Sequence record: AP025670.1
DNA: 64,000 nt
Reading direction: 5' to 3' (one strand)
Source of the DNA: a plasmid
Below the pieces are notes generated by a model. It did no database searches. It was given only the letters and a program-made list of their open reading frames with translations, and was not told where the DNA came from. The translations under genes and the position numbers were made by a program. The number at the start of each line of letters is the position of its first letter. Positions within the stretch are counted from its first letter, which is position 1. This document shows, piece by piece, positions 15,424 through 30,691 of this stretch.

Positions 15424-15434
15424 AGGTGTCCTGA

Positions 15435-15983: not shown

Positions 15984-15992
15984 ACCAGAAAA

Positions 15993-16008
15993 CTTTCACA
16001 TGTGAAAG
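15993..16008. promoter_or_regulatory. Palindrome CTTTCACATGTGAAAG (copy 5)
   Basis: Exact copy after the stop; 23 bp upstream of IR operator 16031. Confidence 0.6.
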
Positions 16009-16030
16009 TCTTGCAAGGTGTCTTTTTATT

Positions 16031-16060
16031 GTTTACAGTATCATAAAATGAATCTGTAAA
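16031..16060. promoter_or_regulatory. IR operator family member (GTTTACAGTATCATAAAATGAATCTGTAAA)
   Basis: Same dyad family; upstream of the 16073 gene. Confidence 0.55.
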
Positions 16061-16072
16061 GGTGCGCGATGA

Positions 16073-16324
16073 ATGTGCTTCCAACGAAAAGCTGGCCTTG
16101 GGCGTTATAACTCAACCAGACCTGAGTGGCTGGCGGCGTACCGAAACGCAAGATGTATGAGAAGCTCAGGTAAAGAACCTGATGCTTCTCTTTCCGGGAT
16201 AGCTTGGAAGGCGCAACTCATTGTTGCCCATGAAAGAGGCAGAATTGACAGCCTGGCTGTCCCTTTGGATGCCAGATTGATAGCAAAGAACCTCATCGAC
16301 GAGATCCTTGCTGAGGAGAACTGA
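16073..16324 (+). CDS. Small hypothetical protein
   Basis: 83-aa ORF. Confidence 0.35.
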   Translation: MCFQRKAGLGRYNSTRPEWLAAYRNARCMRSSGKEPDASLSGIAWKAQLIVAHERGRIDSLAVPLDARLIAKNLIDEILAEEN

Positions 16325-16518
16325 TGGACGAAAAAATTACCTACGAAGAAATGCTTGAACAACTCGACCAGAAAGGCATCCGCGTCACCAACGGGGCGAG
16401 ACGGCTTTATGTCGCGTTGAACAACGGAGTCAAAGCTGAGGTGCTGGGTAACTGCGGTCCCGCCACAATCAGCTTGGTTGACGGGATGATTGTTGTGGAA
16501 GAGCAGACTCTCCACTAA
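16324..16518 (+). CDS. Small hypothetical protein
   Basis: 64 aa, ATGA coupling. Confidence 0.4.
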   Translation: MDEKITYEEMLEQLDQKGIRVTNGARRLYVALNNGVKAEVLGNCGPATISLVDGMIVVEEQTLH

Positions 16519-16528
16519 GGGCAGCAGC

Positions 16529-16900
16529 ATGGGCAAAAAAGTACACATCATTTGTGGAAAGTGCGGCAGTGACGAGATGAACTTTGTCATCAATGAACAC
16601 TGTCCAGACGATCCCCAGAATGTTGCCAGTATGTCCTGCTCAAATTGTTGCGAACTGACAGGCATAGTCGAGTGGTCGGAATTTAATGGACGTGAGCTGA
16701 AAGGTGAAGCCGTCGCCCTATCAACACCGGCAAACGTGAATGCTCTTCTAGGATTGCTTCGCCAGGCGATGGACAGCGTTGAGTATCGCCTCTATGGCGG
16801 GGGCATGTCATTGAGCGGTAATGATGCTGCCGAACTCATAGACCTCCAGGAGCGAGCTGAGAAGGTCTTGTCTGTTCTTCGGAGTGATCAGCATGAGTGA
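16529..16900 (+). CDS. Zinc-ribbon protein (CxxC…CxxCC)
   Basis: 123 aa from ATG 16529; CGKCGS … CSNCC. Confidence 0.5.
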   Translation: MGKKVHIICGKCGSDEMNFVINEHCPDDPQNVASMSCSNCCELTGIVEWSEFNGRELKGEAVALSTPANVNALLGLLRQAMDSVEYRLYGGGMSLSGNDAAELIDLQERAEKVLSVLRSDQHE

Positions 16901-17363
16901 TTTATACGAACCGCTTGAGTTTGTGTTCTGCGGCTTTAGGAAAGGGGACGCTGGGCTCTTTATCTCGGTAGCCACTTTGCGCGATGGTGTTTTAGGCCGT
17001 GAGATGTATTTCTCAAAGGGAAAAAGCAAAAGGCGCTGGGTTGTCGGTGGCATTTACTCAGGGGCCTCGTTTTCGGACAACGGAGCAAAAGGTCTGGATG
17101 ATGCTCATTACGTTAAAGCATGGGAAGTGCAAGGCGACAAGATAGAGTGGCAAGCAAAAAGCGAGCAAGCCGAAGCCTTGGCGCGAAGCGAGAAACTTGA
17201 AGCCGACGATAGGAAGCGCAATGAACTCGAAGAGCTGATGCTACCCATCAGGAAGCAATATGGGGCATTAACAAAGCGACGTGATAGGGCAGGGGCCGCA
17301 GCTCTTGAAGAAGCTGTCCTGAGAGCGCTGAGAGCGCCCATCAGGAAGGCTGAGGAGAAATAA
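16893..17363 (+). CDS. Hypothetical protein
   Basis: 156 aa from ATG 16893 (GGAG RBS), overlapping the upstream stop. Confidence 0.5.
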   Translation: MSDLYEPLEFVFCGFRKGDAGLFISVATLRDGVLGREMYFSKGKSKRRWVVGGIYSGASFSDNGAKGLDDAHYVKAWEVQGDKIEWQAKSEQAEALARSEKLEADDRKRNELEELMLPIRKQYGALTKRRDRAGAAALEEAVLRALRAPIRKAEEK

Positions 17364-17377
17364 CCGTGGAGCCAGTC

Positions 17378-17719
17378 TTAGCTAAAGCATTCGCCGCTTT
17401 TAAAGTCGTAGCTGTAAGTACCCATCAGATTGGCTTTTCGGCTTTTCTTGCCATTGGTGTTTGCTGGCGCTTTAGGGGTCGCAAGTACGCCATAGAACAG
17501 GATACCAACAAGTGCCGCTTGCCACGCGAAAACAGCAACCAGAATCCAAAAAGCAGCAGCCAGAACCGGCAGTTTGTGCAGAAGGTTGAGCACCGGCTTG
17601 ACCCAAATCACTGCCGGGATAGCCAGCACTGCGTAACCCCAGTTGGTGGCCTCAAGCATAGCCAGGCCAAGAACAACAACAGCCATCAGCGCGATATTCA
17701 GTACATGTTTCATGGTCAT
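17378..17719 (-). CDS. Small integral membrane protein
   Basis: 113 aa, 3-4 TM helices; the only minus-strand gene in this block. Confidence 0.5.
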   Translation of the reverse strand: MTMKHVLNIALMAVVVLGLAMLEATNWGYAVLAIPAVIWVKPVLNLLHKLPVLAAAFWILVAVFAWQAALVGILFYGVLATPKAPANTNGKKSRKANLMGTYSYDFKSGECFS

Positions 17720-17751
17720 CTCTCCTTTTCAACTTACACTTTTATCCTATC

Positions 17752-17779
17752 ACAGTATTAAAAAATGCAACTGTGAAAG
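17752..17779. promoter_or_regulatory. IR operator family member (TCACAGTATTAAAAAATGCAACTGTGAA)
   Basis: Dyad ACAGTAT…ACTGT upstream of 17810. Confidence 0.45.
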
Positions 17780-17809
17780 GGCGTTTTTCATTCAAAAAGA
17801 GGTGACACT

Positions 17810-18298
17810 TTGAGTGCAATTATCAGCAAGTGCGGCATGTACAGATACCGTCTGGAAAGGGATGTGCAACCCGAAGGCCTTGTGTTCGGTTATTTTGGTG
17901 TAAACGGCTCTACGGCCACGGCCACCGAGGACGATCACACGGTCAGAAAGTGGATAGGGTTTACTAAGGTCAACGGAGGGAGGCGATTCATAGTCGGTAA
18001 TGCTTTTGCTTTTCGGGCGACCGACGTTCGAGAGCTGGCTACGGCGGTTGATCCTGTCGGGCCTGAAAATGAAATCCACTTGGAAAGGATTATTCGGGAT
18101 GCTGATGTCTTGGTGCCCTGCTGGGGGAGCCGAACTAAGTTGCCTAAGTCTTTGCATGTTCATTTGGACAGGCTTTTAGAGCAGCTCGTTGCATCTGGGA
18201 AGCCGGTATTGGCATTTGGCGTGACTGGTTCGGGGGACCCGAAGCACCCACTAATGCTTGGATATTCGACAAAACTTGTGCCCTGGGGAGGAAAATAA
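17810..18298 (+). CDS. DUF1643-like protein (TTG start)
   Basis: N-terminal C-GMYRY-L-R motif as I recall for DUF1643; RBS AGAGG. Confidence 0.55.
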   Translation: MSAIISKCGMYRYRLERDVQPEGLVFGYFGVNGSTATATEDDHTVRKWIGFTKVNGGRRFIVGNAFAFRATDVRELATAVDPVGPENEIHLERIIRDADVLVPCWGSRTKLPKSLHVHLDRLLEQLVASGKPVLAFGVTGSGDPKHPLMLGYSTKLVPWGGK

Positions 18299-18300
18299 TT

Positions 18301-18798
18301 ATGTCGATGCTTGAAGCACGTTACTTCGTGGCAAAGATAAGCGATGCACAGGCCGTGCTCTGCGATGAGGAGCTGGCGACACTGGAAAGGCTGATCCGGA
18401 AGGTTGATGATGGCCGCAGAGCAAATGGCAAGAGCTCGCTTACTTGCGTTGTTGTCGAAGAAGATTGGCCGAACTGGCAGCAAACGGTTGACTCTGTACT
18501 TTCACTTGCTGACGGGAAAGACAACGATTGGACCAATGCCACACCAGAACAAATCAAGGCCTTTTGGGTCGATGACTCAGTTTGGAAAACTCTGGATGGC
18601 CGGGATAAATGGATTGAAGATCTCGACCTGCTGGTGGACGGTTCCCCGGTGGCTTCTGAGTGGGAACCTTTTGGCTTGGAATCAGGGCAGTCTGTCGTCA
18701 TACGAGGCGGATGGATAGAAGGGAATGCCTTGAGTGATGATGGCGTACCGCTAGTGCAGGCATTCGTCGCTTGGAAACAGGGCCAAGACAACCACTAA
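18301..18798 (+). CDS. Hypothetical protein (acidic, Trp-rich)
   Basis: 165 aa, 3-bp spacing from the upstream gene; a terminator follows (18816-18846). Confidence 0.5.
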   Translation: MSMLEARYFVAKISDAQAVLCDEELATLERLIRKVDDGRRANGKSSLTCVVVEEDWPNWQQTVDSVLSLADGKDNDWTNATPEQIKAFWVDDSVWKTLDGRDKWIEDLDLLVDGSPVASEWEPFGLESGQSVVIRGGWIEGNALSDDGVPLVQAFVAWKQGQDNH

Positions 18799-18845
18799 AG
18801 GAAAATTACTTCGGAAGGGCGGCTATGGCCGCTTTCTTTTTAATA

Positions 18846-18872
18846 TTTACAGTATCACATAATGATACTATG
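18846..18872. promoter_or_regulatory. IR operator family member (TTTACAGTATCACATAATGATACTATG)
   Basis: Dyad family. Confidence 0.5.
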
Positions 18873-18901
18873 ATGTTGTTAATTTACTTGGGGAGGCGCT
18901 T

Positions 18902-19165
18902 ATGCTCACTGCTAAATGTATAGGGTGCGGATGCACCGATGATCACGCTTGTGTTGAAAACGGTCAACCGTGTCACTGGCTTCGCGTGAATAGAGTGGAA
19001 GGTATCGGGGTCTGCTCTTCGTGCCCGGATGCTCTCAATCAATTCGCATCGACCAGCCAGGAACAAGCAACTGGACAGGATGACTACCGGAACAGTCCAG
19101 AATGGAAGGATTTTTCATCACGCATTGGTAATGCACTATGCGGGGGCCGGAGCAAAGCAAAGTAA
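18902..19165 (+). CDS. Small Cys-rich protein
   Basis: 87 aa, CIGCGC…C…C…CSSC; a terminator follows (19170-19196). Confidence 0.5.
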   Translation: MLTAKCIGCGCTDDHACVENGQPCHWLRVNRVEGIGVCSSCPDALNQFASTSQEQATGQDDYRNSPEWKDFSSRIGNALCGGRSKAK

Positions 19166-19328
19166 GGTAAAAACGGCTATGCCGTTTTTTATTTGTCTAT
19201 TACGGCATCACATTATAAGCCTGTAAATGCTGAATCTGTAATTGCCCAAAATGGGCGTGAGCAGGGGCGGGGTGTGAGGTCGTTCTAAGGCAAAATACTT
19301 TGTACTGGCAGAACAAAGAAAGAATGAA

Positions 19329-19344
19329 CTTTCACATGTGAAAG
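19329..19344. promoter_or_regulatory. Palindrome CTTTCACATGTGAAAG (copy 6)
   Basis: Exact copy 16 bp upstream of ATG 19360. Confidence 0.6.
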
Positions 19345-19359
19345 TTTTTGGGGTACGGG

Positions 19360-20292
19360 ATGGAACAAGCAATTCAAAGTTACTTGGCTGACGACCGGCA
19401 ATATCAAGACAGGATTACCGCAGCTCTCAGCCAGGTTGAAGAGAAAGGTGCAGAGTACGAAGCTCTTTGCCAACAGCGTGCTCAGTTGGGGATCTGGCAA
19501 AAAATTATAACGTTCTGGCAGTTTCGTCGAGACATCGCCGTTATACGTTCAGCACTAAAAGGCCATAACAGCGATTTGCGGTATTTGCGCCGTGGGAGAG
19601 ACCAGCTCAAAGAGGGATTGGTTTCTCGGGCCGTGAAGCAAGCGATTGACGGTAGCCAGATTCTGGAACGAATCACCCAAGCTCAAGATAGGCTTGACGC
19701 CGCATCTCGACTCCACGAGAGCAACAAGCGACTGGTGGACATGGGGCAAAAAGCCTTACGTGAAATCAGTGAGGCCTCTTCCAGTGTTTCATCAGCACAA
19801 ACAATGGAGGTTCTCGACCTTGTGACTGACAACAAGGGCATTTCCGTCATGTCGTCGATGTCAAACTCCTCGGCCAGCAGTGAAATAGACGATGCGAAGA
19901 GAGCTGTGAAAGCCTTCGCAAATGCGCTGGGGGATCATCGTGACATTGTGGGTTCACTGCACCACTCAATGGCAACTGAGTTTATCGATCTGGGTATGGA
20001 CTTTGCCGGTTTGAATGATGGTTTCGACTTTGGGAGCGTCTTCTCGCTGTTCAGCTTGTCGTCTGCCAGTTCCTCTCTGGACAAAGTAGAGTCTCGCGTT
20101 GAATCTCTGATGCCAGATCTAAGACGAGCCGCCTCCAATTCGGCAGCAGAGTATGCCCGTGTTAACGAAGAGTTCTTTGGCCTAAAACAACAGGCCTGTT
20201 GCCAAGTGCGTGAGTTGCTGGTGACAAATGGTATAGACGTGTCAGTCAAGCGCGTTGAGTCCGCCGTGAACAGCTACAGAGTTGGAAGGTGA
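19360..20292 (+). CDS. Hypothetical coiled-coil protein
   Basis: 310 aa, Ser-rich segments. Confidence 0.5.
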   Translation: MEQAIQSYLADDRQYQDRITAALSQVEEKGAEYEALCQQRAQLGIWQKIITFWQFRRDIAVIRSALKGHNSDLRYLRRGRDQLKEGLVSRAVKQAIDGSQILERITQAQDRLDAASRLHESNKRLVDMGQKALREISEASSSVSSAQTMEVLDLVTDNKGISVMSSMSNSSASSEIDDAKRAVKAFANALGDHRDIVGSLHHSMATEFIDLGMDFAGLNDGFDFGSVFSLFSLSSASSSLDKVESRVESLMPDLRRAASNSAAEYARVNEEFFGLKQQACCQVRELLVTNGIDVSVKRVESAVNSYRVGR

Positions 20293-20293
20293 T

Positions 20294-20324
20294 ATTTACA
20301 GCATCATAAAATGAACTTATGATG
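20294..20324. promoter_or_regulatory. IR operator family member (ATTTACAGCATCATAAAATGAACTTATGATG)
   Basis: Dyad family, upstream of the AAA ATPase gene. Confidence 0.5.
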
Positions 20325-20365
20325 TGGAGTGATCAACAAGTCGAAATTTATTTAAAGGATAAGCG

Positions 20366-21829
20366 ATGAGCGATATTACACAGCAAATGGACAAACTTGA
20401 GATTCCAATCAAGTTGTCCTTTCCAGTCATCAACGTTAGCACTTTTGAGCTGGGCCGCGCAGAGAGCGTTTTCTCTGACATTGCAAAGAAAGTCGGCAAG
20501 CACTTTATTGTAATGCCATTCAAGAAGCTGCCTGATCCAGGCACGATGAAGGCAATGGTGGACGAGTCCAAGAAGTCCTCCAAAAACGGAGTTGTCGTGT
20601 TCGACACTTTCTTTTTCGACCGCCAACGTGCAAACCCGGAAACACTCCCAGCCCTCAAGTCATCACTGACCTATCTGGAGAATGAGGGGATCAACTACAT
20701 CATCGCTGGCAAAGACGTCTTCAATGAAGAGTTCGTTTATCACATCGATCTCCCGGCTATGAGCAATCAGGAAATCCTGAAACTGCTCCAGACCTGTGAA
20801 GATAACGTGAAAGATGGTGGAGTCTTCGAGAGCAACGAACGTGCTGTCATCGCAAACCACGCCTTGGGCTTGTCACACACCCAGATGAAGAACGTCTTCA
20901 CCTACTCCGCTTACTTGAAATTCAAGGGTGAAGAATACCTGGGCGAGATCCGAAAAGAAAAAGCTCACATCTTGCGTGATGTCGGCCTCGATGTGCTTGA
21001 GGCCATTGATATTGGGAATGTCGGTGGTCTCGAAAACCTCAAGGAGTTCCTCCAGATACGTAAAGCCGGTTGGGACAAAGACCTTCCGGTAAAAGGTGTC
21101 CTTCTGGCCGGTGTACCTGGTGGTGGTAAATCGCTGACGGCAAAAGCCGCTGCCGGTGTACTTGGCACTACCTTGGTTCGCCTGGATATGGGCCGTTTCT
21201 ATAGCAAGTATCTCGGTGAAACCGAGCGCCAGTTCAATCGTGCATTGCAGACCATTGAGCAGATCGCACCCGTTGTTGTGTTGATTGACGAGATGGAGAA
21301 GTTTTTTGGTAATGCCGATGGCGAACACGAAGTATCCAAGCGCCTGCTGGGCTCTTTCCTCTACTGGCTTCAAGAGCGCAAGAAGAAGATCTTCATTGTG
21401 GCGACGGCCAACCGGGTTCAGTCGCTGCCTCCTGAATTGATGCGAGCTGGCCGCTGGGACCGAGCATTCTTCATTGATCTGCCAAGTGTGGCTGAGCGCC
21501 AGAAGATTTTTGAGATCCACCTCGCCAAGCAGAAGGCCAACATCGCCGCGTTCGATATGCCTACGCTACTTCGTACCACCGAGGGATACACCGGGGCAGA
21601 GATTGAACAGGCCGTCATTGACGCGATGTATCTGGCGAACGCTCAGGACAAAGAGCTCAACAATGAAGCGCTGGTGGATGCGGTCACTCGCATTACCCCG
21701 ACCAGTGAAACTCGCCGGGAAGACATCAACCAGATTCGCAGTTTGCGGGATCAAGGCTTCTATCCGGCCAATAACTTCGATGTTCAAGAGCAGAATGGCT
21801 CTGGACGCAAACTTGCCATCGAGGACTAA
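20366..21829 (+). CDS. AAA+ ATPase (classic AAA, FtsH/Cdc48-like C-terminal domain) with a ~230-aa N-terminal domain of unknown function
   Basis: Walker A GVPGGGKS, Walker B VVLIDEME, second region of homology …ATANRVQSLPPELMRAGRWDRAF…. Confidence 0.85.
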   Translation: MSDITQQMDKLEIPIKLSFPVINVSTFELGRAESVFSDIAKKVGKHFIVMPFKKLPDPGTMKAMVDESKKSSKNGVVVFDTFFFDRQRANPETLPALKSSLTYLENEGINYIIAGKDVFNEEFVYHIDLPAMSNQEILKLLQTCEDNVKDGGVFESNERAVIANHALGLSHTQMKNVFTYSAYLKFKGEEYLGEIRKEKAHILRDVGLDVLEAIDIGNVGGLENLKEFLQIRKAGWDKDLPVKGVLLAGVPGGGKSLTAKAAAGVLGTTLVRLDMGRFYSKYLGETERQFNRALQTIEQIAPVVVLIDEMEKFFGNADGEHEVSKRLLGSFLYWLQERKKKIFIVATANRVQSLPPELMRAGRWDRAFFIDLPSVAERQKIFEIHLAKQKANIAAFDMPTLLRTTEGYTGAEIEQAVIDAMYLANAQDKELNNEALVDAVTRITPTSETRREDINQIRSLRDQGFYPANNFDVQEQNGSGRKLAIED

Positions 21830-21975
21830 GCGATGGAGTGGATTTTTTGGACTGTTCTTGCTGTGTCATTGATATTCCACTCAGAAGTCAGCGACTTAAT
21901 CAATGCTCTAGCTGAGTGGGCTAGGGAGCGAGCAGGTGCGGCCAGGAGAGAGCATCAAAACGGCAGAGAGGAGAA

Positions 21976-22314
21976 TTGACCGTTATGTACAAACAAGACA
22001 TTGAGAAGGGGATTGAGCTGCTCAAGCTGTGCAGCAAACTCCAGTCAGAAAAAGATGGAGTGGATAGACCAGAGCCTCTGGTTATCGACAAGAGTAAGGT
22101 GCTGGACCAGTTCGCCCGAGACGTTTCCACATCGATCACCTACATGAGTTCGTTGTTCAAGCTCATCCCCATGATGGAAAACCTTACCGAGCTTGGCCGA
22201 AAGCTGGAGAAAGAAGGAAAGATCGAAGTTTCTCTCGGGCAAGACTATTCCATTGCCGCGCTTAACTTTGTTATGTCGGAACACGGCATGACACCCGAAA
22301 CAACTCAGGAGTGA
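21976..22314 (+). CDS. Hypothetical protein
   Basis: 112 aa; the start is uncertain (TTG 21976 or ATG 21985). Confidence 0.4.
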   Translation: MTVMYKQDIEKGIELLKLCSKLQSEKDGVDRPEPLVIDKSKVLDQFARDVSTSITYMSSLFKLIPMMENLTELGRKLEKEGKIEVSLGQDYSIAALNFVMSEHGMTPETTQE

Positions 22315-22318
22315 TGAG

Positions 22319-22711
22319 ATGAGCCATATCGTAAAAGGCAAGGTGCAGGTCGCCTACAAAGACAAAGAGCTGCTGTTGAAGGCTCTGGAGGGAGTTGGCG
22401 TCGTTGTTGAAAACGAAAAGCTGTACCGCGTGGGCGCTGGCTACACCTTCGAGAAATACCCGATTGTTCTGATCGACCAGAACAACAAGGAGCACCGGAT
22501 TGGCTACAAGGAAAAAAACGGTGTTTGGGAGCAGTACCAGGAAAACTACGGCTCTTATGGCCGCTGGACGCAGCAGGCAAGCAGCAAGGTGCAGGATCGC
22601 TACATTGCCTTCCACTACGAGCAACAGTTGAAAGAGGAAGGTTTCAGCGTGACGGTGAAGCAGCATCACGATGGCACTTTGGAACTGGAAGCTGAGGAAG
22701 CTGTTTGGTAA
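22319..22711 (+). CDS. DUF1257-like protein
   Basis: 130 aa; the N-terminus MSHIVKGKVQ…LLKALEGVG resembles the DUF1257 family signature as I recall it. Confidence 0.5.
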   Translation: MSHIVKGKVQVAYKDKELLLKALEGVGVVVENEKLYRVGAGYTFEKYPIVLIDQNNKEHRIGYKEKNGVWEQYQENYGSYGRWTQQASSKVQDRYIAFHYEQQLKEEGFSVTVKQHHDGTLELEAEEAVW

Positions 22712-22759
22712 TAGCGCCAAGGCAATCAGATTAGTTGAACTTAACGACGAGGTGACAAA

Positions 22760-22954
22760 GTGAAAAAGGTAAACATCAAGATCAAGGGCGGCAAGATTGC
22801 TGCCGATTTCACGGGGTTCCAGGGTAAGACCTGTGAAGCGCTGGAGCAGCGTATTCGCCCGGAAGAGCTTGAAGTCGAAGAAAAAGAGCTGAAACCCGAG
22901 TACCACTTCAATGCTGGTCAAACCCAGCACGAAACGGAACAGAACGAATGGTGA
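22760..22954 (+). CDS. DUF2997-like small protein (GTG start)
   Basis: 64 aa, MKKVNIKIKGGKI…FTGFQGKTCEALE, the pattern I associate with DUF2997. Confidence 0.45.
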   Translation: MKKVNIKIKGGKIAADFTGFQGKTCEALEQRIRPEELEVEEKELKPEYHFNAGQTQHETEQNEW

Positions 22955-24132
22955 TGAGAAGGACAGGGCGCGTCCCCCTTCTTTTGCTGGTTGGTCTCAT
23001 GGTCGCAGCTCCTGCGGCCTTTGCCAGTGACTTTGTGACTGGCGTAATGGTGGGGCAAATGCTCTCAGATGACTCAGGCAGCAAGAAGGCAGAAGACACA
23101 GGCCCGGAGAGTAAAACGGTCATTGATTACCATGAAGGTCAGCCGGTTGTGACCAAAGTGGAGGCCTTCAAAAGTAACAAATGGCGCAAGCTGGATGGCC
23201 CTCAGGGCGGCTATTTTGTTTGCCCAGGTGAATACCGTAGCTATTCGGGAAGGCTGCGTTGTCGCGTCCATGATGACGGGCTCAATGGTTTTATGGGCGG
23301 TATGACTGATGCTCAGGAGCTACCGCTTCAAGAAGCTCTGACCAAGTTGGAAGGTAAACCCATCTCCCTGCAAACCATTGAAGTCCACGGCAACAACCTG
23401 GCAGTCAAATACCAGTTAGCACCACCAGCACAAACGCACGTCAAAACTCAGGATCTGGGGGTGGTCAAGCAGGATGGTGAAACGCAGAAGTCTGCCAGTC
23501 AACAATCAGCGTCATCCACAGTGACTGCACCAAAGAGTGAACCTCCCAAGCAGATTAGTGCTGCACAAGACACCGACCGCAATACCAGTGCGTTTCAAAG
23601 TCCGTTCGAGGAGGTAAGTGACTCCATGATCGGTCTAATGGATAGCTCTTTCGTCAAAGTCATAGCGGGGTTGATGCTGGTGTTTGGGGTTGCTAGTGGA
23701 ATTATGAGGCAGAGCCCATCAGGAATTGTGATGGGGATAATGCCTGCAATTATGATCATGACCGCGCCAACGGTTATTCGTACCATGTTCGATACAGGCG
23801 CGGCCAGTACCAAGCCAGTGGAAGATAGCGGAAGCTCATTTCCTTTCTTCTTGGTGGCAATAGTGCCGGTGCTGATTTTCTTTGCCTATAGAGCTTTTAT
23901 GAACAACCGGAGCGACTCCGAAATTGATGAGTTGTTAAGAGAAGCCCGACGTGCTGAAAGGGCTGAACGACCAAGCAATGAGCCTCCCTCAGTGGATGAA
24001 CTCCGTGAGCGCCAGCAACAAAACCCAGAAAGAGAACCGGTGGTTGTCAGCTCATCAGCTCCGGCACCAAAGGTGCAAAAGGAAGAGCCAATCGAAGTAC
24101 AGCCAGGCAAGCGCAAAATTATTTTGGATTAG
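22948..24132 (+). CDS. Secreted/membrane protein with C-terminal KRKIILD tail
   Basis: Signal peptide, central TM hairpin, charged C-terminal region ending …QPGKRKIILD; its N-domain is paralogous to the 24488 product. Confidence 0.55.
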   Translation: MVMRRTGRVPLLLLVGLMVAAPAAFASDFVTGVMVGQMLSDDSGSKKAEDTGPESKTVIDYHEGQPVVTKVEAFKSNKWRKLDGPQGGYFVCPGEYRSYSGRLRCRVHDDGLNGFMGGMTDAQELPLQEALTKLEGKPISLQTIEVHGNNLAVKYQLAPPAQTHVKTQDLGVVKQDGETQKSASQQSASSTVTAPKSEPPKQISAAQDTDRNTSAFQSPFEEVSDSMIGLMDSSFVKVIAGLMLVFGVASGIMRQSPSGIVMGIMPAIMIMTAPTVIRTMFDTGAASTKPVEDSGSSFPFFLVAIVPVLIFFAYRAFMNNRSDSEIDELLREARRAERAERPSNEPPSVDELRERQQQNPEREPVVVSSSAPAPKVQKEEPIEVQPGKRKIILD

Positions 24133-24143
24133 TGGGGTAGGTT

Positions 24144-24491
24144 ATGAGCAAAAAGCGCATCGTAATCAAAAATGGTGAGGTCTGCGGGTTTGCCGATGAG
24201 GTTTCCTTCAAAGGCCTTGAAGTGCAGGAATACAGTAAAACAAGGGTTTCGCGCATCGTGCCGACGAGCGGCATTCTAATGATTGCGTTCTATGTTATTC
24301 GCGGACTTTGTTCAGACGAGTCAAAGATTGCGGCATGGACTCGTGTTTGGCGTTGCCAGTGGAAGGTGCTGATCGACGGTAAAAGCTATGGACCATTCAG
24401 CAGTCGTGCGGATGCTATCTCGTTCGAGAAGGACGAGATCTACAAACAAGGCAAATTCTTTGCCGATGCCACTCACGAGGCGGCAGTATGA
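24144..24491 (+). CDS. Hypothetical protein
   Basis: 115-aa ORF. Confidence 0.4.
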   Translation: MSKKRIVIKNGEVCGFADEVSFKGLEVQEYSKTRVSRIVPTSGILMIAFYVIRGLCSDESKIAAWTRVWRCQWKVLIDGKSYGPFSSRADAISFEKDEIYKQGKFFADATHEAAV

Positions 24492-24916
24492 TGACACGGG
24501 CGGCTATGGCCGCGCTGTTATCCGCGTTGGTAATAGGCCTTGTGTCTGATTTGTCCGCACAAGAGCTGGTGGTAAGCCAGGTGGCTATAGACAAGTCCAC
24601 TGAGGTGGAGAAAGAAGCTACCTTCCACAACCGCAAGTGGGTGTTAAGGACGGGGCAGGTTAGTGGATTCTTCATCTGCCAAGGAGATAACAAAGACATT
24701 TACTACCGGCATGACAGGGTGGGCGCTCACTGCCAGAAGACATCGACTGGGTGGCGCAATGTACTGGGTCTCAGGGACGATGTTCCGGAAGTTGAGCTGA
24801 GCGTGTACCTGGGGACCGTTGAAGGTGTCCCCGTGAAAGTCCTTCATCAGGAAGTGGATGGTTACGATCTGAAAGTGCAGTACAAGGTTGCACGTAAAGG
24901 GTCAGCAAATGAGTGA
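24488..24916 (+). CDS. Secreted protein, paralogous to the N-domain of the 22948 product
   Basis: Signal peptide; shared …KW-R-G…GFFICQGD / GYFVCPGE… segments. Confidence 0.5.
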   Translation: MMTRAAMAALLSALVIGLVSDLSAQELVVSQVAIDKSTEVEKEATFHNRKWVLRTGQVSGFFICQGDNKDIYYRHDRVGAHCQKTSTGWRNVLGLRDDVPEVELSVYLGTVEGVPVKVLHQEVDGYDLKVQYKVARKGSANE

Positions 24917-25472
24917 GAGTGTGCGTCGGTCAACGCCGATGGTAAAGATTAAAGTCCTGCCGAGTTTCGTAGGGGTTCCCTTCCCGTCGGTGCTACTTAT
25001 CGTTGCGGGGCTCCTTAATGGCCCTTTGTGGGGCTTTGCCGCATTCGTCTTTCATATCGTCATCAAGCGGTACATCTACAGAGAATACCGGAGGTTGCCA
25101 TATCCGATGCCAACCGGCTCAAGGCCTATGGATGAGTTGAGCGAGCTCCTTGTAAAGGGGATACCGGAGGAATTTTTCCGGCGGCTTGACGCAGCTTGCA
25201 GCTCTGATGCGTCAGTACAAATAACCTGCCCAAAGAAATACCGGATGCTCAAAATGTCGTTGAATCGCTATGCCAACCGCGCTGGTTGTTACCCGCAGTT
25301 CCGGGAGGGGGATGAAATAGCGATTGAGGTAACAGAGCAGAGACCAAGAAAAGCAGGAGCAGGGAAGGGCTTTCCAAGTATTCAAGATCTGAAAGCGTCA
25401 GAGGGTGTTCTGAGTGAACCGGAGCAGCCTATCGAAATTCAGAAAGATAAGCGCAAGATTATCTTGGATTGA
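24909..25472 (+). CDS. Membrane protein with C-terminal KRKIILD tail
   Basis: 2 TM helices then a cytoplasmic domain ending …QKDKRKIILD. Confidence 0.5.
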   Translation: MSESVRRSTPMVKIKVLPSFVGVPFPSVLLIVAGLLNGPLWGFAAFVFHIVIKRYIYREYRRLPYPMPTGSRPMDELSELLVKGIPEEFFRRLDAACSSDASVQITCPKKYRMLKMSLNRYANRAGCYPQFREGDEIAIEVTEQRPRKAGAGKGFPSIQDLKASEGVLSEPEQPIEIQKDKRKIILD

Positions 25473-25483
25473 GGTGGGTTGGA

Positions 25484-26053
25484 ATGCGGTCATTTTTATA
25501 CAGAATATTGCTTCTTTGCTTCGTCATTATCGTCCAGATAGGGCTAATCGCCATTGATGCGAGCCCGTTGGTTGTTGCTATGTTCCTCTCGCTAACAGCT
25601 TTAGTCGCTGGGGTCTGGATGGCGTACCTTCATTCCCGATTTTTGATGGCGGTGACTCCAGTAGTTATCTCTGTGCTAATGGCGACCCTCGCCATGAAAA
25701 TGTTTGAGCCGAGACTCTTTGTTTCTGCCAGCGAAAAAGGCTGGTTCCCTTTGTCATTGTTCGTCTCGATACCGTTTTACTTCTACTTGAGTTACTTGCT
25801 TGAGATAGAGGAGAAGAGACGTACATTCCGGGCCAATGTGATTGGGTTTTTGCGTGGAGTTTCGGAAGAGATCCGTCGTTCAACCAGAGAGCATAGAGAT
25901 CAAGGTGAGATAAGACACGGTGGAACAGAGCTGGGGAGTATTGACGAACTACAAAGGGGCGAGGCCAAAGAGCCAGAAGTCATCAGCTCTACATCGGACC
26001 AGAAAGAACAAGGCACTCCCAAGCGAGACAAGAGAAAAATCATTCTGGACTGA
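25484..26053 (+). CDS. Polytopic membrane protein with C-terminal KRKIILD tail
   Basis: 4 TM helices, ends …KRDKRKIILD. Confidence 0.5.
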   Translation: MRSFLYRILLLCFVIIVQIGLIAIDASPLVVAMFLSLTALVAGVWMAYLHSRFLMAVTPVVISVLMATLAMKMFEPRLFVSASEKGWFPLSLFVSIPFYFYLSYLLEIEEKRRTFRANVIGFLRGVSEEIRRSTREHRDQGEIRHGGTELGSIDELQRGEAKEPEVISSTSDQKEQGTPKRDKRKIILD

Positions 26054-26055
26054 AC

Positions 26056-26601
26056 ATGGAACAAATCAGAAAAGGCTTAACCCTCGAATACGCAAAAGAG
26101 AAGCGTGAGAAGCTCTTGGCGGAGCTCAAATCAGATGAACACTACAGCCAGACTGAAACAGTAGCCTATGGGCACCACGACCCGCTCAGCGTTCCTGTGG
26201 CAGCCTGCGATAGTTGTCATGGCCGGGCGCAAATGCAGAAGGTTATAGGTCCTCCTGTGCGCTGGAATATGGTCTGCCTGGGTTGTGGGAAGGCGATCCA
26301 GCAAATCCAGAAACGACCGTGGCAAGCAGCAATGGCGTGGAACCAAATTAACTTGGGAACACAGGACTACAGACAACTGCCCCTCTTTGGACTTGGGAGT
26401 CTGTCTCCTGAATCAGCAAGACAGAGAATGGTGGGAATACGCAGAAACCTGGAGCTGAGAAAGAGCCTCGCCGGTATCGAGAGGACGATAGCCCACAAGG
26501 AAGGTCAACGCCCACCAGGGAAAGAGTACCAGCAACGACTGGAAGCATATCTGCAATGGGCCATGCTGGCGCTGAGGTTGCTCAAAGTCAAAACAAGTTA
26601 G
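26056..26601 (+). CDS. Zinc-ribbon protein
   Basis: 181 aa, CDSCHG…CLGCG; a terminator follows (26622-26650). Confidence 0.5.
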   Translation: MEQIRKGLTLEYAKEKREKLLAELKSDEHYSQTETVAYGHHDPLSVPVAACDSCHGRAQMQKVIGPPVRWNMVCLGCGKAIQQIQKRPWQAAMAWNQINLGTQDYRQLPLFGLGSLSPESARQRMVGIRRNLELRKSLAGIERTIAHKEGQRPPGKEYQQRLEAYLQWAMLALRLLKVKTS

Positions 26602-26658
26602 TGGTGAGAAGGAAGAGAGAACCCGGTACTGTAAAGCGCCGGGTTTTTTATGCCGCCC

Positions 26659-26689
26659 TGTTTACAGTATCAAAAAGTGATGCTATAAA
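26659..26689. promoter_or_regulatory. IR operator family member (TGTTTACAGTATCAAAAAGTGATGCTATAAA)
   Basis: Dyad family upstream of the ParB-like gene. Confidence 0.5.
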
Positions 26690-26717
26690 GTGAGCAAGTC
26701 ACAAGGAGAACCAACGA

Positions 26718-27656
26718 ATGGCTGTTATCAACTCACTCCGCGCTCTCAAAGGCGTAACCGCCCCCGAAGAACTGAAAAAAGGGGATGGATTCACTATCTC
26801 TCCTCAGCTTCTGCTGGAGGAAGAAGGGTTTAACACCCGTGGCGCTTTCTGCGAGAACTACTACGAGCGCCCGGACATCAAAGCTGGTATTCGAGTGCTG
26901 GCCGATGCTTACAAGCGTGGCGACTATGTTCCGCCGATCATCGTCAAAGTTATCGACGGAAAGGTGTATGTCCGTGAAGGTCATCGCCGTCGCCGCGCCA
27001 TCCTGCTTGCTATCGAGGAAGGTGCCGACATCCAGTTCGTGCAGGTCGTAGAGCACAAGGGCGATGAAGCCGAACAGAGCCTTCTGATCGCCACCAGCAA
27101 CGATGGGCTCCCTCTTTCTCCACTTGAGCGAGCCGTGATCTACGCTCGGCTTGCAAACTGGGGGTGGAGCGACCAGATGATTGCCCAACGTGTTGGCCGC
27201 TCGGCTGAGCACGTTCGTATCGCCCGTGCCCTTCTGGAGATGCCTCTGGAACTGAAACGGATGATTCAGGAAGGCTCTGTGGCTGCCACCTACGCTCAGG
27301 AGCTCTACAACGAGCACGGCACCAACGCTGTTGAGATCCTGAAAAAGGCGCAGGAAGAACAGGCCAATGGCAATGACGGCAAGAAGGCCCCGAAAAAACT
27401 GACCAAAAAGTCTGTCGAGAAAGGTCCCCGCCTGGGCAAAAAGGTGGTTGAAGCCATGCACCGAGGCGTGAGCTCTATTACCAGTCGTCTGGACAACATC
27501 AAGCCGAACGATGACGGTGAAACGTTCACCCTTACCCTGAGCCGGGAAGATGTTGATGCGTTTCAGGAGCTGAAAGCCAAGCTGGCGGAGCTGGAGCCCA
27601 AAACTGACGAGTCCAATGAAGACCAGCAAGAGCTGGATTTGGCGGGTAATCAGTAA
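26718..27656 (+). CDS. ParB/Srx-domain protein (ParB-like nuclease domain; KorB/ParB paralogue)
   Basis: ParB box II-like GHRRRRA; 312 aa; lysine-rich linker. Confidence 0.7.
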   Translation: MAVINSLRALKGVTAPEELKKGDGFTISPQLLLEEEGFNTRGAFCENYYERPDIKAGIRVLADAYKRGDYVPPIIVKVIDGKVYVREGHRRRRAILLAIEEGADIQFVQVVEHKGDEAEQSLLIATSNDGLPLSPLERAVIYARLANWGWSDQMIAQRVGRSAEHVRIARALLEMPLELKRMIQEGSVAATYAQELYNEHGTNAVEILKKAQEEQANGNDGKKAPKKLTKKSVEKGPRLGKKVVEAMHRGVSSITSRLDNIKPNDDGETFTLTLSREDVDAFQELKAKLAELEPKTDESNEDQQELDLAGNQ

Positions 27657-27853
27657 TGGGGCGCTGTACTGTTGAGGATGCCATCCAGTTGCTGGAAGGG
27701 GGAACCATTGTTGCGGTCGTACCGGCGTCATCCGGACCAGATACGCTGGTGGTTTCCTCTATCAGGCTTGAATCCGGACTGACAGTACAGTTTTCCCCTC
27801 CAGCGGCAGCCAGTGTCAGTGTTCAGCTCGCGGAGATCGATGATGAACAGTGA
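27656..27853 (+). CDS. Small hypothetical protein
   Basis: 65-aa ORF coupled to the upstream stop. Confidence 0.3.
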   Translation: MGRCTVEDAIQLLEGGTIVAVVPASSGPDTLVVSSIRLESGLTVQFSPPAAASVSVQLAEIDDEQ

Positions 27854-28091
27854 CAAGAAATCGTCTGAACTAGCCAGGCTGAGGCGTCAGCATCAGCTAG
27901 TTTGCTCTGTCATCGCAGCCTTGCTCATCTGTGCAGGTATATATGGGACCGTTGCACGTTTGGGCTTCATCCTGATGGCGCCATTGTTTGTTATCGCCTT
28001 AGGTGTGTTAGTCGATGCGTTCCTGCCAAGGGTAAGTTGGTTCTTCTGTGTGCGGGACGTGAGAGACATATTTGGGTGGAGAAAACGATAG
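27840..28091 (+). CDS. Small membrane protein
   Basis: about 83 aa, 2 TM helices; contains a stray iteron-like sequence at about 27940. Confidence 0.35.
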   Translation: MMNSDKKSSELARLRRQHQLVCSVIAALLICAGIYGTVARLGFILMAPLFVIALGVLVDAFLPRVSWFFCVRDVRDIFGWRKR

Positions 28092-28333
28092 TGGCGAAGT
28101 TGAAGGTTTATGGCGGGATCACTTATGGGGCCGAGGGGCAGTTCAGAACTGTCGTTGCGGCCACAAGTAAGAGCAAGGCTGCTTCAATTCTGAATATCAC
28201 GATTTACCAGATGAATAGCTGGTGGACGGAGACTTTTAACAAGTACGAGGTCGAGGCGGCGATGTCTGAGCCGGGGGCTATTTTTTCAAAGCCTCTCGAT
28301 GGCAGAGGCCCATTTGTAAAGCAGGAAGGATAA
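28091..28333 (+). CDS. Small hypothetical protein (GTG start)
   Basis: The in-frame GTG overlaps the upstream TAG; the ORF-track version (27902) overlaps the previous gene. Confidence 0.3.
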   Translation: MAKLKVYGGITYGAEGQFRTVVAATSKSKAASILNITIYQMNSWWTETFNKYEVEAAMSEPGAIFSKPLDGRGPFVKQEG

Positions 28334-28335
28334 TT

Positions 28336-28698
28336 GTGAGAAGTGTTTTTGTATGGTTGAAGGCCGGGGCAATACTGGCTTTCCTATTCATCGGTATTGC
28401 TGGTGCTGTCAACCGGGTCTATTGGGTTAACAGCCAAGGTTTGAGCCAGGGGTCGATGTCATCCACATGGGTTAAAGAAAAGTTTGGCCTAGACCTTGGT
28501 GCAATGTGCCGTTATGACAAACCCCAGCATGTCGAGTTCAAAGTCCTTCCTGATCAGACAATCCAGTTCCGCTGCTCATGGTTTGAAGGTGGCGGATTAA
28601 CCTGGTGGCCTTTCTACACCGAGCATGATGTAAAGAGCGCCGAGGCGACCTCTGTGCTCAATGACATCTTCCAGGGTACGGAGGGGCATGATGAGTAG
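28336..28698 (+). CDS. Secreted hypothetical protein
   Basis: 120 aa, signal peptide, RBS AGGAAGGA, GTG start. Confidence 0.45.
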   Translation: MRSVFVWLKAGAILAFLFIGIAGAVNRVYWVNSQGLSQGSMSSTWVKEKFGLDLGAMCRYDKPQHVEFKVLPDQTIQFRCSWFEGGGLTWWPFYTEHDVKSAEATSVLNDIFQGTEGHDE

Positions 28699-29935
28699 CC
28701 AGCTAGAACTTTTTCATGTCCAAGAGGCGTATGCCAAGGCCGATAAGCCGCTATCGAATGAGGAGCTCTACGATTCAGTGGCAGAGCTCGCTGGAATCCC
28801 GAAAAGCGCTCTGAATGAACAAAGTGAAATTGGCAAGGCAAAGGTCAAGCGGAGCAAGCTGAAAAGACAGATACGCTGGTATCAGCAAACCCTCAAGTCG
28901 ATGAACCTTCTCCAGAAGGTGGACGGCGAGCGGGGTGTCTGGGAGCTCTCAAGCAAAACCAAGAAGGGCCTGCATGAAGCGCTTGGTGGCATTCGACTTG
29001 TCGCCTATTCAACAAATCTTGGGCTGGCGGTGTGGTCAAACAACAAGAGCTTTTTCTCTGACCTCGATGAGCCGGTGCATCTGTGTGTGACATCTCCGCC
29101 GTTTCCGCTCCGAATACAGCGTGGCTATGGAAACGTTGATGAAGCCAAATGGGTGGATTTCATAACCCAGGCGCTCGAACCGATAGTCAAGAACCTGGTG
29201 CCAGGAGGAAGCGTTGTCCTGAATGTCAGCAATGACATCTTCGAGGCCAAGAGCCCCTCCAGATCTCTCTATGTTGAAAGAATGGTGCTGGCGCTCCATG
29301 ATCGGCTCGGGCTGTCTCTCATGGATAGATGGCCGTGGATCAACCTGTCAAAACCACCAAGTCCAACCCACTGGGCTTGTGTGAACCGTTACCAGTTGTG
29401 TGCCGGGTGGGAGCCTGTTTATTGGTTCACCAACGACCCTGACAGGGTGCGTTCTGACAACAGAAGGGTCCTGATCCCTCATACAGAGAAACATCAGAAG
29501 CTGATGGCTCAAGGGGGGGATAACCGAGTGGTCAGTTATGGTGACGGGGCATATCGACTGAGAGGGAACGCATTCTCTAATGTCACAGAAGGACGGATAC
29601 CGAAAAACGTTATCCAGCGCGGCCACCGTTGTGCGGATACGCTGGAGCTTCGGAGAATCGCTAGAGAACTGGGGTTGCCACCGCACCCGGCAATGTTCCC
29701 AACAGACATACCTGAGATGGCTATCCGCTTTCTGACGGAAGAGGGCGACCTTGTTGTTGATCCGTTCAGTGGGTCGAATAAGAGCGGGTTGGCCGCAGAA
29801 AGGAATAACCGGCGCTGGATCGCCTGTGACATCATTCTTGAGTACATTCGTACCCAGGCGGAAATGTTCACCGGCTTTGATGGATTTTGGATTAACCCAG
29901 CCATAGCAACAGTGGGCGGGGGAGCGTTGAATTAA
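28688..29935 (+). CDS. DNA methyltransferase, N6-adenine/N4-cytosine type (beta-class order), orphan
   Basis: Catalytic motif IV (TSPPF) lies N-terminal to the AdoMet motif I (VVDPFSGSN). Confidence 0.75.
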   Translation: MMSSQLELFHVQEAYAKADKPLSNEELYDSVAELAGIPKSALNEQSEIGKAKVKRSKLKRQIRWYQQTLKSMNLLQKVDGERGVWELSSKTKKGLHEALGGIRLVAYSTNLGLAVWSNNKSFFSDLDEPVHLCVTSPPFPLRIQRGYGNVDEAKWVDFITQALEPIVKNLVPGGSVVLNVSNDIFEAKSPSRSLYVERMVLALHDRLGLSLMDRWPWINLSKPPSPTHWACVNRYQLCAGWEPVYWFTNDPDRVRSDNRRVLIPHTEKHQKLMAQGGDNRVVSYGDGAYRLRGNAFSNVTEGRIPKNVIQRGHRCADTLELRRIARELGLPPHPAMFPTDIPEMAIRFLTEEGDLVVDPFSGSNKSGLAAERNNRRWIACDIILEYIRTQAEMFTGFDGFWINPAIATVGGGALN

Positions 29936-29948
29936 GAGAACAATACCT

Positions 29949-30398
29949 ATGAGTTTAAGTTTTATCGCAAGAGTCTTGCGCCAATTGGCAATTATGTTTG
30001 TCCTCTCCGTGCTTATTATGGCCGGATATATCTACTATGCCGGTAAACAGCATCAGCAGGCAGCAATCAACTTTTGGGGTGATCAATACCAGCCTGATGC
30101 CATCTCGACGCAAATTGATTGGGGGTTTATCGGTAACTGGGTTATTCCTCGCGGGGGGCCAATTATTTCTCCGGGCATTGCTGGAGTGTGTCCCAATACA
30201 CCACTTCCCGTTGTGCCTCTTAAAATTGGTCCTGATGGCCGGGGTTACGTTCTCTGTGGTATTGGAAGTGAGGCTGTCGCTACCAGCTTTGATGTCAATG
30301 ACATCCAGGATGAAGAGATACGAAACACATTAAAAACGATGTTTGAGGAAGAATTTGAAAAAACTGGTAAGGGGGATAAATGGACGCTCAAGAACTGA
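29949..30398 (+). CDS. Secreted/membrane hypothetical protein
   Basis: 149 aa, N-terminal TM. Confidence 0.45.
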   Translation: MSLSFIARVLRQLAIMFVLSVLIMAGYIYYAGKQHQQAAINFWGDQYQPDAISTQIDWGFIGNWVIPRGGPIISPGIAGVCPNTPLPVVPLKIGPDGRGYVLCGIGSEAVATSFDVNDIQDEEIRNTLKTMFEEEFEKTGKGDKWTLKN

Positions 30399-30691
30399 AC
30401 CATATGATAGCTGAGGCCTACAGCCGGGATCTGCAAAAGCCTGAGCTGGTATCGTTCAAAGAGGTGAGTCGCTGGGGGCGTAAGTACGGTTTCCCCGTCG
30501 TATGCACCCTAGCCGATGAAAGTGAAGAAAAGCAGATTCACTGGGCTGCCAGTTTGCTCATTCAAGTAGCCGGTACTTGGCCGCGAGAAGATATGCCGGA
30601 ATTGCTCACACCGGAACAGGGCTCCGCGCTGCTCAACGATGCGAAGCAGTTATTGGCGAATGGGCTTGGGGCAGCAAATCAAATGCGCTGA
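30380..30691 (+). CDS. Hypothetical protein
   Basis: 103 aa; a terminator follows (30710-30737). Confidence 0.45.
   Translation: MDAQELNHMIAEAYSRDLQKPELVSFKEVSRWGRKYGFPVVCTLADESEEKQIHWAASLLIQVAGTWPREDMPELLTPEQGSALLNDAKQLLANGLGAANQMR

Follow-up and report, generated by a model that had tools for sequence, protein, structure and literature searches.

The recognition of a short C-terminal peptide by an AAA+ machine is a known principle. The proteasome activators PAN, the Rpt subunits, Cdc48, Blm10, Mpa, and Bpa use C-terminal HbYX or GQYL docking tails, and the ClpX-related signals include the XB tail of SspB (LRVVK-COOH), which docks on the ClpX N-domain, the LAA end of the ssrA tag, and the RRKKAI end of MuA. 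A heptapeptide that may belong to this class of signals, KRKIILD, is the C-terminus of three consecutive membrane proteins, here named T1, T2, and T3, encoded on a stretch of 64,000 nucleotides of the plasmid sequence record AP025670.1 (the window), and its core is also the end of a Ycf46-family AAA+ ATPase encoded upstream of them. What appears to be new is the motif itself, its occurrence on many unrelated membrane proteins as well as on the ATPase, and the system as a whole. The original prediction, made from the letters of this DNA, had known of no described motif of this kind, and a literature search for “KRKIILD” likewise found none.

Like the HbYX tails, their nearest precedent in principle, the tails described here are very short, flexible motifs at the extreme C-terminus of a classical-clade AAA+ ATPase and of unrelated proteins, with one proposed receptor. 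Unlike them, they read R-K-hydrophobic-x-L-D and end in I-L-D or I-E-D without a penultimate Tyr, and the bearers other than the ATPase are inner-membrane proteins. No gene for a 20S proteasome or a peptidase was found in the cluster, and the resemblance is one of principle only. With the SspB and ClpX signals they share a basic and hydrophobic C-terminal peptide after a long flexible linker and, as proposed here, an AAA+ unfoldase, but the ATPase is of another family and carries a tail itself, the peptide ends in Asp, and many membrane proteins per operon, paralogous or unrelated, are bearers.

Two groups of conjugation proteins are also comparable. Eex of SXT and EexC of IncC are small inner-membrane proteins with their specificity in the cytoplasmic C-terminus, and the T proteins are small inner-membrane proteins with a predicted cytoplasmic C-terminus, but there is no sequence relation between them. 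Residues 217 to 281 of T1 align without gaps to the mature IncC TraA, a pilin of the IncC/SXT type (mating pair formation type F, MPF_F); in T1, however, this hairpin is an internal part, preceded by a periplasmic domain and followed by a third transmembrane segment, the linker, and the tail, and it scores just below the cut-off of the pilin family.

The cytosolic proteins of the cluster lead to cyanobacteria and plastids. The ATPase and two small proteins of 130 and 64 residues belong or link to the Ycf46, Ycf35 (DUF1257), and DUF2997 families, and more distant Ycf46 relatives also end in a basic-hydrophobic-x-hydrophobic sequence; the plasmid clade differs by an additional 115-residue protein and by the tailed membrane proteins. 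In cyanobacteria, the genes for DUF2997, ycf35, and fed7 are clustered (PMC4284462), and Ycf46 is reported to interact with KaiC and to affect carbon concentration (bioRxiv 10.1101/2025.07.21.665879). The papers found on Ycf46 give no mechanism, and the mentions of DUF1257 and DUF2997 found in the literature were only passing ones.

IncC plasmids rank among the main vehicles of resistance genes, including those for carbapenemases, and most of their backbone genes, including the operon of about 6 kb considered here, are annotated as “hypothetical.” The shared tail turns this row of orphan genes into a testable hypothesis, the coupling of a cytosolic AAA+ machine to specific inner-membrane proteins, and a peptide of 7 to 8 residues together with a point mutant is a ready reagent for testing the tail.

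A C-terminal tail on membrane proteins and on an AAA+ ATPase

The tails and their bearers are the following.

20366-21829, plus strand: Ycf46-family classical-clade AAA+ ATPase, 487 residues (Pfam AAA, PF00004, E = 1.4e-27)
21806-21826, plus strand: tail RKLAIED of the ATPase, with the core common to the membrane-protein tails
22948-24132, plus strand: T1, tail-bearing inner-membrane protein, 394 residues (from hydropathy, homologues, and an AlphaFold2 [AF2] model)
24109-24129, plus strand: tail KRKIILD of T1, read from the open reading frame (ORF)
24909-25472, plus strand: T2, tail-bearing inner-membrane protein, 187 residues, with an N-terminal transmembrane hairpin of two segments (hydropathy)
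25449-25469, plus strand: tail KRKIILD of T2, read from the ORF
25484-26053, plus strand: T3, tail-bearing inner-membrane protein, 189 residues, with about four transmembrane segments (hydropathy)
26030-26050, plus strand: tail KRKIILD of T3, read from the ORF

The original prediction of an identical tail on three consecutive proteins, encoded by different codons and conserved at the protein level, was borne out by the ORFs and the comparison of the codons. The 21-base stretches coding for the tails differ at 2 of 21 positions between T1 and T2 and at 6 of 21 between T1 and T3, every difference is synonymous, and altogether 12 different codon strings for KRKIILD were counted. All three proteins were also said to be membrane proteins with a highly charged, low-complexity region before the tail. 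Hydropathy supported the membrane topology, and the linkers of T1 and T3 fit this description; T2, on the other hand, has about 90 possibly folded residues between the membrane and its linker. Because basic residues come after the last transmembrane segment in all three proteins, the tails are predicted to be cytoplasmic. An RNA-level or translational-coupling element was rejected due to the synonymous variation in the tail codons, and a membrane-targeting amphipathic helix because the tail lacks the length for one and is carried by proteins that reside in the membrane anyway.

The tail is rare outside these proteins. In all six frames of the window, the loose pattern [KR]3[ILVM]3[DE] matched only the sites in T1 to T3. 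A looser C-terminal pattern, [RK][KRQN][LIVM]x[LIVMF][DE] followed by at most one additional residue, was applied to the whole plasmid (152 kb; about 1,219 ORFs in six frames) and matched only T1 to T3, the AAA+ ATPase, and one IS21 helper ATPase (IstB), the last of these by chance; the background of this pattern was 1 in 9,720 ORFs from 76 unrelated loci. The strict motif was found in 12 of 10,685 ORFs in 83 loci, with 11 of the 12 located in the 7 orthologous loci.

Homologues of the three proteins keep the tail. Among the database homologues of T1 down to 40% identity, the tail was present in 26 of 28 and thus in every intact protein, the other two being truncated or frameshifted. Nearly all intact tails read GKRK[IV]ILD, one reads KNKRKIVID, and variants of 250 to 287 residues with in-frame deletions retain tail and linker. 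The relatives of T2 in the loci L087, L090, and L094 have kept it as well. Most T3 homologues down to 69% identity end in KRDKRKIILD; the remainder includes partial or divergent sequences as well as several with a frameshift in the A-run of the tail codons. These frameshifts fall exactly into the AAGAGAAAAATC stretch (A-run, 26035-26039) and are most likely assembly errors at a homopolymer. In an IncA plasmid (L004 7940-8515, CP082659.1), a single gene takes the place of the two separate genes of IncC and encodes the body of T2 continued in frame by the T3 linker and tail, which shows that the linker and tail form a modular unit.

Related loci were collected from plasmids, species-representative genomes, contigs encoding ATPase homologues, and metagenomes. 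In about 20 distinct loci, the tail was present on 72 membrane proteins (60 non-redundant at 90% identity) that belong to at least 19 BLAST families. All 60 non-redundant tails have R at position −6, 56 have L at −2, and 57 have D at −1; the consensus is (G/x)-(K/x)-R-[KR]-[ILV]-x-L-D-COOH. In the neighborhoods of the clusters, a tail was counted on 34 of 64 predicted membrane ORFs compared to 1 of 139 non-membrane ORFs, and this single ORF has an N-terminal hydrophobic segment. A linker with a median of 72 residues (range 46 to 159), rich in Ser, Pro, Glu, and Arg, separates the last transmembrane segment from the tail. No Pfam domain was found in any of the 45 tail proteins scanned.

The C-terminus of the ATPase, GSGRKLAIED, has the same core as the membrane-protein tails, which the original prediction had not noticed. 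It follows a conserved QGFYPAN sequence and a variable acidic spacer. Among the 67 orthologues with at least 45% identity and an intact C-terminus, 51 contain R-[KRQN]-[LIVM]-x-[LIVMF] within their last ten residues, with ends such as GRKLAIED, GRQLTVD, GRQINVD, GRKVSV, and GRRISV. In the AF2 model of the monomer (predicted local distance difference test [pLDDT] score, 85), residues 473 to 487 are disordered and the protein's own tail is not docked, as would be expected of a peptide that docks in trans.

The ATPase consists of an N-terminal alpha/beta domain of about 200 residues, for which a scan of the Pfam library gave no family match, and a single AAA domain after it. Relatives are named “ycf46” or “SpoVK/Ycf46/Vps4” in their source annotations. 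A profile search of the PDB matched the D2 domains of VAT, p97/Cdc48, and AFG2, only with residues from about 190 to 450. The sequence contains a Walker A motif (GVPGGGKS), a pore loop (KYLG), a Walker B motif (LIDEME), and the arginines R360 and R363. With all these motifs intact and the matches to D2 of VAT and p97, the protein looks like a competent protein translocase or unfoldase.

The core module and its related loci

Four genes form the common core of the about 20 distinct loci, the ATPase gene and those for the following three proteins.

22319-22711, plus strand: divergent DUF1257 (Ycf35-like) protein, 130 residues (iterated hidden Markov model [HMM] search, transitive link)
22760-22954, plus strand: DUF2997 protein, 64 residues (Pfam match below the cut-off, RefSeq name)
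24144-24491, plus strand: 115-residue protein, the fourth core component, present at all orthologous loci

The 130-residue protein has no direct Pfam match to DUF1257 (PF06868) and is a divergent relative: the iterated HMM joins it to proteins from the loci L011 and L055 that do match Pfam DUF1257 (E = 2.5e-11 and 3.7e-22). Its gene is present at all orthologous loci, and no relative was found on viral contigs. A sequence search of the PDB gave no relative of this protein or of the 115-residue protein. The 64-residue protein scores 21.1 bits against Pfam DUF2997 (PF11211; E = 2.9e-4), below the cut-off of 24.1; it is named DUF2997 in RefSeq and has relatives that pass the threshold. The DUF2997 gene adjoins that for DUF1257 at every locus, and in 12 loci both are adjacent to the ATPase gene. 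The 115-residue family has 296 representatives at 50% identity, and three distant members were looked up. The gene in L122 adjoins DUF2997 and a DUF1257-like gene; the one in L124, together with its short partner contig L125, adjoins an AAA ATPase gene, and L124 also encodes DUF2997 and a candidate DUF1257-like protein; the contig of L123 has only 1.6 kb and is uninformative.

Among the loci examined, the tail occurs almost only beside this module, and the AAA ATPase, DUF1257, DUF2997, and the 115-residue protein are the only constant neighbors of the tail proteins. The number of membrane proteins ending in the motif varies from zero to six per locus, as the following examples show.

L087, Vibrio: NKRKIILD, NKRKVTLE, NKRKVILD
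L088, P. aeruginosa: AKRKIILD, GRRRIVLD, GYRKVVLD
L089, Vibrio: VRKISLD three times (two of them on a divergent operon), VRKISLS
L090, metagenome: GKRKLILD, HKRKIILD, GKRRLILD
L091, metagenome: six tails, for instance RKIQLD three times and RRRLELD
L005 and related loci, Pseudomonas plasmids: SRKLHLD, GRRLFID, GRRLFLD
L092 and L124, metagenome: core without a tailed membrane protein

The tail core on the ATPase reaches beyond this clade. In a wider set of 80 Ycf46 loci from species genomes, about 60 ATPases end just after a conserved LRxWAxxRxVxA helix and have no DUF1257 or DUF2997 within 10 kb. Five more distant loci contain DUF1257 and DUF2997, and the ATPases of all five have a C-terminal extension, with a clear R-[KR]-hydrophobic-x-hydrophobic sequence in three, L011 (GRRIAV), L053 (GRKITS), and L083 (SRKLDLD plus seven residues), a divergent one in L055, and an unclear one in L060. 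Seven other ATPases are tailed without detectable DUF1257 or DUF2997 nearby (L017, L033, L037, L040, L042, L071, and L085), two of them on short contigs. The association is therefore asymmetric, with tailed ATPases that lack these neighbors yet an extension in five of five loci that have both. On balance, it suggests that the ATPase tail at first served in connection with DUF1257 and DUF2997 and was acquired only later by membrane proteins in the plasmid clade. Since the tail core is found on orthologous and distant Ycf46-family ATPases, often beside DUF1257 and DUF2997, it may bear on ycf46 and ycf35 in general.

Some additional features of these loci were noticed. In L011 (1857-2873) and L053 (3755-4549), a DUF3150 protein ends in ARRFTLAA or VRRLSLADAA, respectively, resembling the tails GRRIAV and GRKITS of the local ATPases; soluble tail-bearing partners may therefore exist beyond the plasmid clade. 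The DUF1257-like and DUF2997 proteins have conserved C-termini of their own kind (22697-22708 and 22940-22951; also in L005, L008, L009, and L087 to L092), an acidic or polar stretch with Trp, Tyr, or Phe as the last residue, for instance EEAVW, TEQNEW, TVTY, EKDSY, and EEKSF. In L124 (4320-10395), the core genes are located beside genes for ThiF, Prok-E2, and other ubiquitin-like conjugation proteins on the opposite strand.

Proposed docking to the AAA+ module and other explanations

To understand the possible meaning of the tail, these data can be combined into a working model. KRKIILD would be the form taken in IncC by a portable short linear motif that is located at the cytoplasmic C-terminus, behind a disordered linker. 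Through this motif, inner-membrane proteins in varying combinations would be held at a receptor site of a co-encoded cytosolic module, which is composed of the Ycf46-type ATPase, DUF1257, DUF2997, and the 115-residue protein. Candidates for the receptor are the N-domain of the ATPase, DUF1257/DUF2997, or the 115-residue protein. As the C-terminal core of the ATPase is the same, G-R-[KRQ]-[LIV]-x-[LIV]-D/E, the enzyme may use the same pocket as the membrane proteins. The alternation hydrophobic-x-hydrophobic, followed by the negative charge of an Asp or of the bare carboxylate, would fit a mode of binding in which the tail is added as a beta-strand and its C-terminus is recognized. An unfoldase machine of the Cdc48/VAT type would thereby be wired to the inner membrane, in the case of the IncC-type plasmids with one wired protein derived from the TraA pilin. 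Docking of the tail to the co-encoded module is the explanation best supported by the comparison of sequences, and we give it about an even chance.

Several observations weigh against this assignment. About half of the membrane ORFs in the neighborhoods have no tail, and the existence of the core without any tailed membrane protein in L092 and L124 makes these proteins accessory to it. The ATPase tail has I or V instead of L at −2 and sometimes an extra residue or no terminal acid. The association of the ATPase tail with DUF1257 and DUF2997 may reflect shared ancestry of one subfamily.

In the main alternative, the same peptide would serve as a degron-like recognition tag, through which the AAA+ unfoldase would engage the long unstructured linker and then act on the membrane proteins, the pilin-like T1 among them, by threading, unfolding, or extraction. 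ClpX with ssrA or the MuA C-terminus, FtsH, and Msp1 with its membrane substrates would be comparable cases. The ATPase, with intact pore loop, Walker motifs, and arginine fingers, groups with the Cdc48/VAT/PAN unfoldases, the long disordered linkers suit the initiation of threading, and a basic and hydrophobic C-terminus recalls the MuA-type ClpX signal. A degron on the ATPase itself would be odd, however, no protease gene was found in the cluster by the Pfam and NCBIfam scans or in the RefSeq annotation, and the conservation of the tail is stricter than that of most degrons, which leaves the tag a possible but rather unlikely explanation. A sorting signal of the PEP-CTERM, GlyGly-CTERM, or LPXTG type would agree with a conserved C-terminal motif on many envelope proteins of one locus. 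The order in such signals is motif, transmembrane helix, and basic cluster, but here the helix is followed by the polar linker of 46 to 159 residues and the motif comes last, on the cytoplasmic side. This anatomy already contradicts a sorting signal; moreover, the same scans and annotation gave no gene for a sortase, exosortase, or rhombosortase in the cluster, and the soluble ATPase is tailed, too, so that we consider this explanation highly improbable. For chance or a functionless remnant of a recent local duplication, one could quote the small distance between the T1 and T2 tail codons and the linkers of T1 and T3, which look homologous. The 12 codon strings, the spread over at least 19 unrelated families, the invariance in homologues with 40% identity, and the low background rate refute this, and its probability is practically nil.

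The tail might also bind a partner outside the module, such as the coupling protein of the type IV secretion system, TraG (entry exclusion), ParA or ParB, or a host protease adaptor or clamp. The pilin-like domain of T1 and the position of the cluster near partition genes in IncC and some relatives would agree with this. However, some loci with tail proteins have no par or tra genes beside them, one plasmid that encodes such proteins is typed as non-mobilizable, the four core genes remain the only constant neighbors, and the matching tail of the ATPase would be left unexplained. In the plasmid pVCR94deltaX, the laboratory model of IncC transfer, the region from 9 to 106 kb of the record (120.6 kb in all) contains no homologue of the ATPase or of T1 to T3 except traA itself, and higBA, with sul2 right after it, leads directly to the small gene upstream of parA. 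This plasmid nevertheless transfers normally, at about 4e-3 (PMC4207636), and all exclusion by pVCR94 derivatives is due to eexC and sfx (PMC11493245). This means that the cluster is dispensable for conjugation, maintenance, and exclusion under those laboratory conditions, and a role as an essential coupling or entry-exclusion factor was rejected. A partner outside the module is thus improbable. Of the original prediction that envelope proteins share a C-terminal peptide for docking to a single partner, the AAA+ ATPase module gained comparative support from the many families, the constant neighbors, and the ATPase tail, but the coupling or entry-exclusion factor did not stand.

Returning to docking at the AAA+ module, a wider scheme may be put forward tentatively and is, in our estimate, probably not correct in full. 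DUF1257 (Ycf35) and DUF2997, in plasmids together with the 115-residue protein, would be the receptor platform of a Cdc48-like AAA+ motor in a previously unrecognized tail-docking system, which mobile elements would have wired to arrays of inner-membrane proteins, including a pilin-derived one, and which, driven by ATP, would pull, extract, or remodel envelope proteins from the cytoplasmic side. If true, this would also open a first way to the mechanism of ycf46 and ycf35, orphan genes in cyanobacteria and plastids.

Domain structure of T1 and plasmid setting

T1 is composed of a signal peptide, a periplasmic beta-rich domain, a pilin-like hairpin, a third transmembrane segment, the disordered cytoplasmic linker, and the tail; hydropathy agrees with the signal peptide, the periplasmic location of the first domain, and a total of three transmembrane segments. 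Its parts and its paralogue are the following.

23101-23427, plus strand: periplasmic domain of T1, residues 52 to 160 approximately (BLASTP match to the 24488-24916 protein; AF2 pLDDT 77 to 89 in this region)
23596-23790, plus strand: TraA-like two-helix hairpin of T1, residues 217 to 281 (NCBIfam, BLASTP, phmmer, and tblastn)
23992-24021, plus strand: second linker motif SVDELRERQQ, a predicted helix about 35 to 45 residues upstream of the T1 tail
24488-24916, plus strand: secreted paralogue of the T1 periplasmic domain, 142 residues, without a tail (BLASTP)

Translation from the ATG at 22948, which overlaps the stop codon of the DUF2997 gene, yields the signal peptide MVMRRTGRVPLLLLVGLMVAAPAAFA, followed by SD. 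The RefSeq start at 22999 cuts this canonical signal peptide, with loss of the n-region and part of the h-region, so that 22948 is the better start of T1. The paralogy of the periplasmic domain to the secreted 24488-24916 protein, as predicted originally, was supported by BLASTP (E = 4e-11, 30% identity over 96 residues). The overall pLDDT of the AF2 model of T1 was 57, and Foldseek found nothing in the PDB at E ≤ 0.001 for this model, including the periplasmic domain.

The hairpin matched the NCBIfam model NF041281 of the gammaproteobacterial TraA conjugative pilin with E = 4.8e-12 and 45.7 bits, the cut-off being 50. It shares 30% identity over 61 ungapped residues with the mature TraA pilin of the plasmid itself in BLASTP, including the inter-helix loop GI(A/M)RQS. 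A phmmer search with TraA as query scored 3.7e-12 against the T1 orthologue in L098, a tblastn search with T1 matched traA of pVCR94, and one T1 orthologue bears the NCBI name “TraA family.” T1 does not have the architecture of a small prepilin, since the hairpin is located inside a protein of 394 residues and is followed by the third transmembrane segment and a cytoplasmic tail. NF041281 matched 5 of 45 tail proteins at E ≤ 0.001, and the hairpin is confined to T1 orthologues from the IncC/IncA-like group; in the relatives from Pseudomonas, a single transmembrane segment takes its place. The pilin-like domain hints at pilus or envelope biology.

A second motif 35 to 45 residues before the tail was seen by eye in T1, in T3 (at about 25916-25945), and in many related loci, for instance as PPSVDELRERQQQ, GSIDELQRGE, LEELREQ, LNELREK, or LDELNRQ; in many tail proteins, it has the form [LIV]-x-E-L-R/Q. 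As the AF2 model of T1 predicts a helix at residues 349 to 358, the C-terminal module may be bipartite, composed of the second motif and the tail.

The window is part of the backbone of an IncC plasmid. The 5 kb between 22000 and 27000 are identical, with matching coordinates, in the IncC plasmid pBML2537 of Providencia stuartii (NZ_AP022377.1) and are present at 95 to 100% identity in more than 550 IncC and IncA plasmids. A 15-kb backbone segment that includes the cluster, about 15400-30400 of the window, is missing in pVCR94deltaX. In RefSeq, T1, T2, T3, and their companions are all “hypothetical protein,” with an “AAA family ATPase” and a “DUF2997 domain-containing protein” upstream. No function of the operon was found described in the literature, and the papers on IncC plasmids that were consulted do not mention these genes. 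The T2, T3, 142-residue, 115-residue, and 130-residue proteins had zero matches in Pfam, PADLOC, PHROGs, and NCBIfam. The PADLOC models gave only generic AAA domain matches (IetA/TRIP13) and none for the other nine proteins of the cluster, and a known anti-phage defense system was rejected because its components were not matched.

The genes from 21976 to 26601 overlap or are separated by at most 50 nt, which suggests a single operon. A possible promoter, judged by its match to the consensus only, is located upstream of the ATPase gene.

20295-20323, plus strand: promoter-like site, TTTACA-17-TATGAT

Downstream of T3, at 26056-26601, a 181-residue protein is encoded that is conserved in IncA, is outside the core, and has a weak zinc-ribbon match to the Lar restriction alleviation protein (E = 0.011). 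Elsewhere on the same plasmid, outside the window (L120 17320-18594 and 13464-14372), a DUF3150 protein ends in DDDDLFF and a neighbor of a MoxR-like AAA ATPase in EQEDHFF; both ends resemble the C-terminal tail of single-stranded DNA-binding protein (SSB), and both genes flank ssb-bet-exo.

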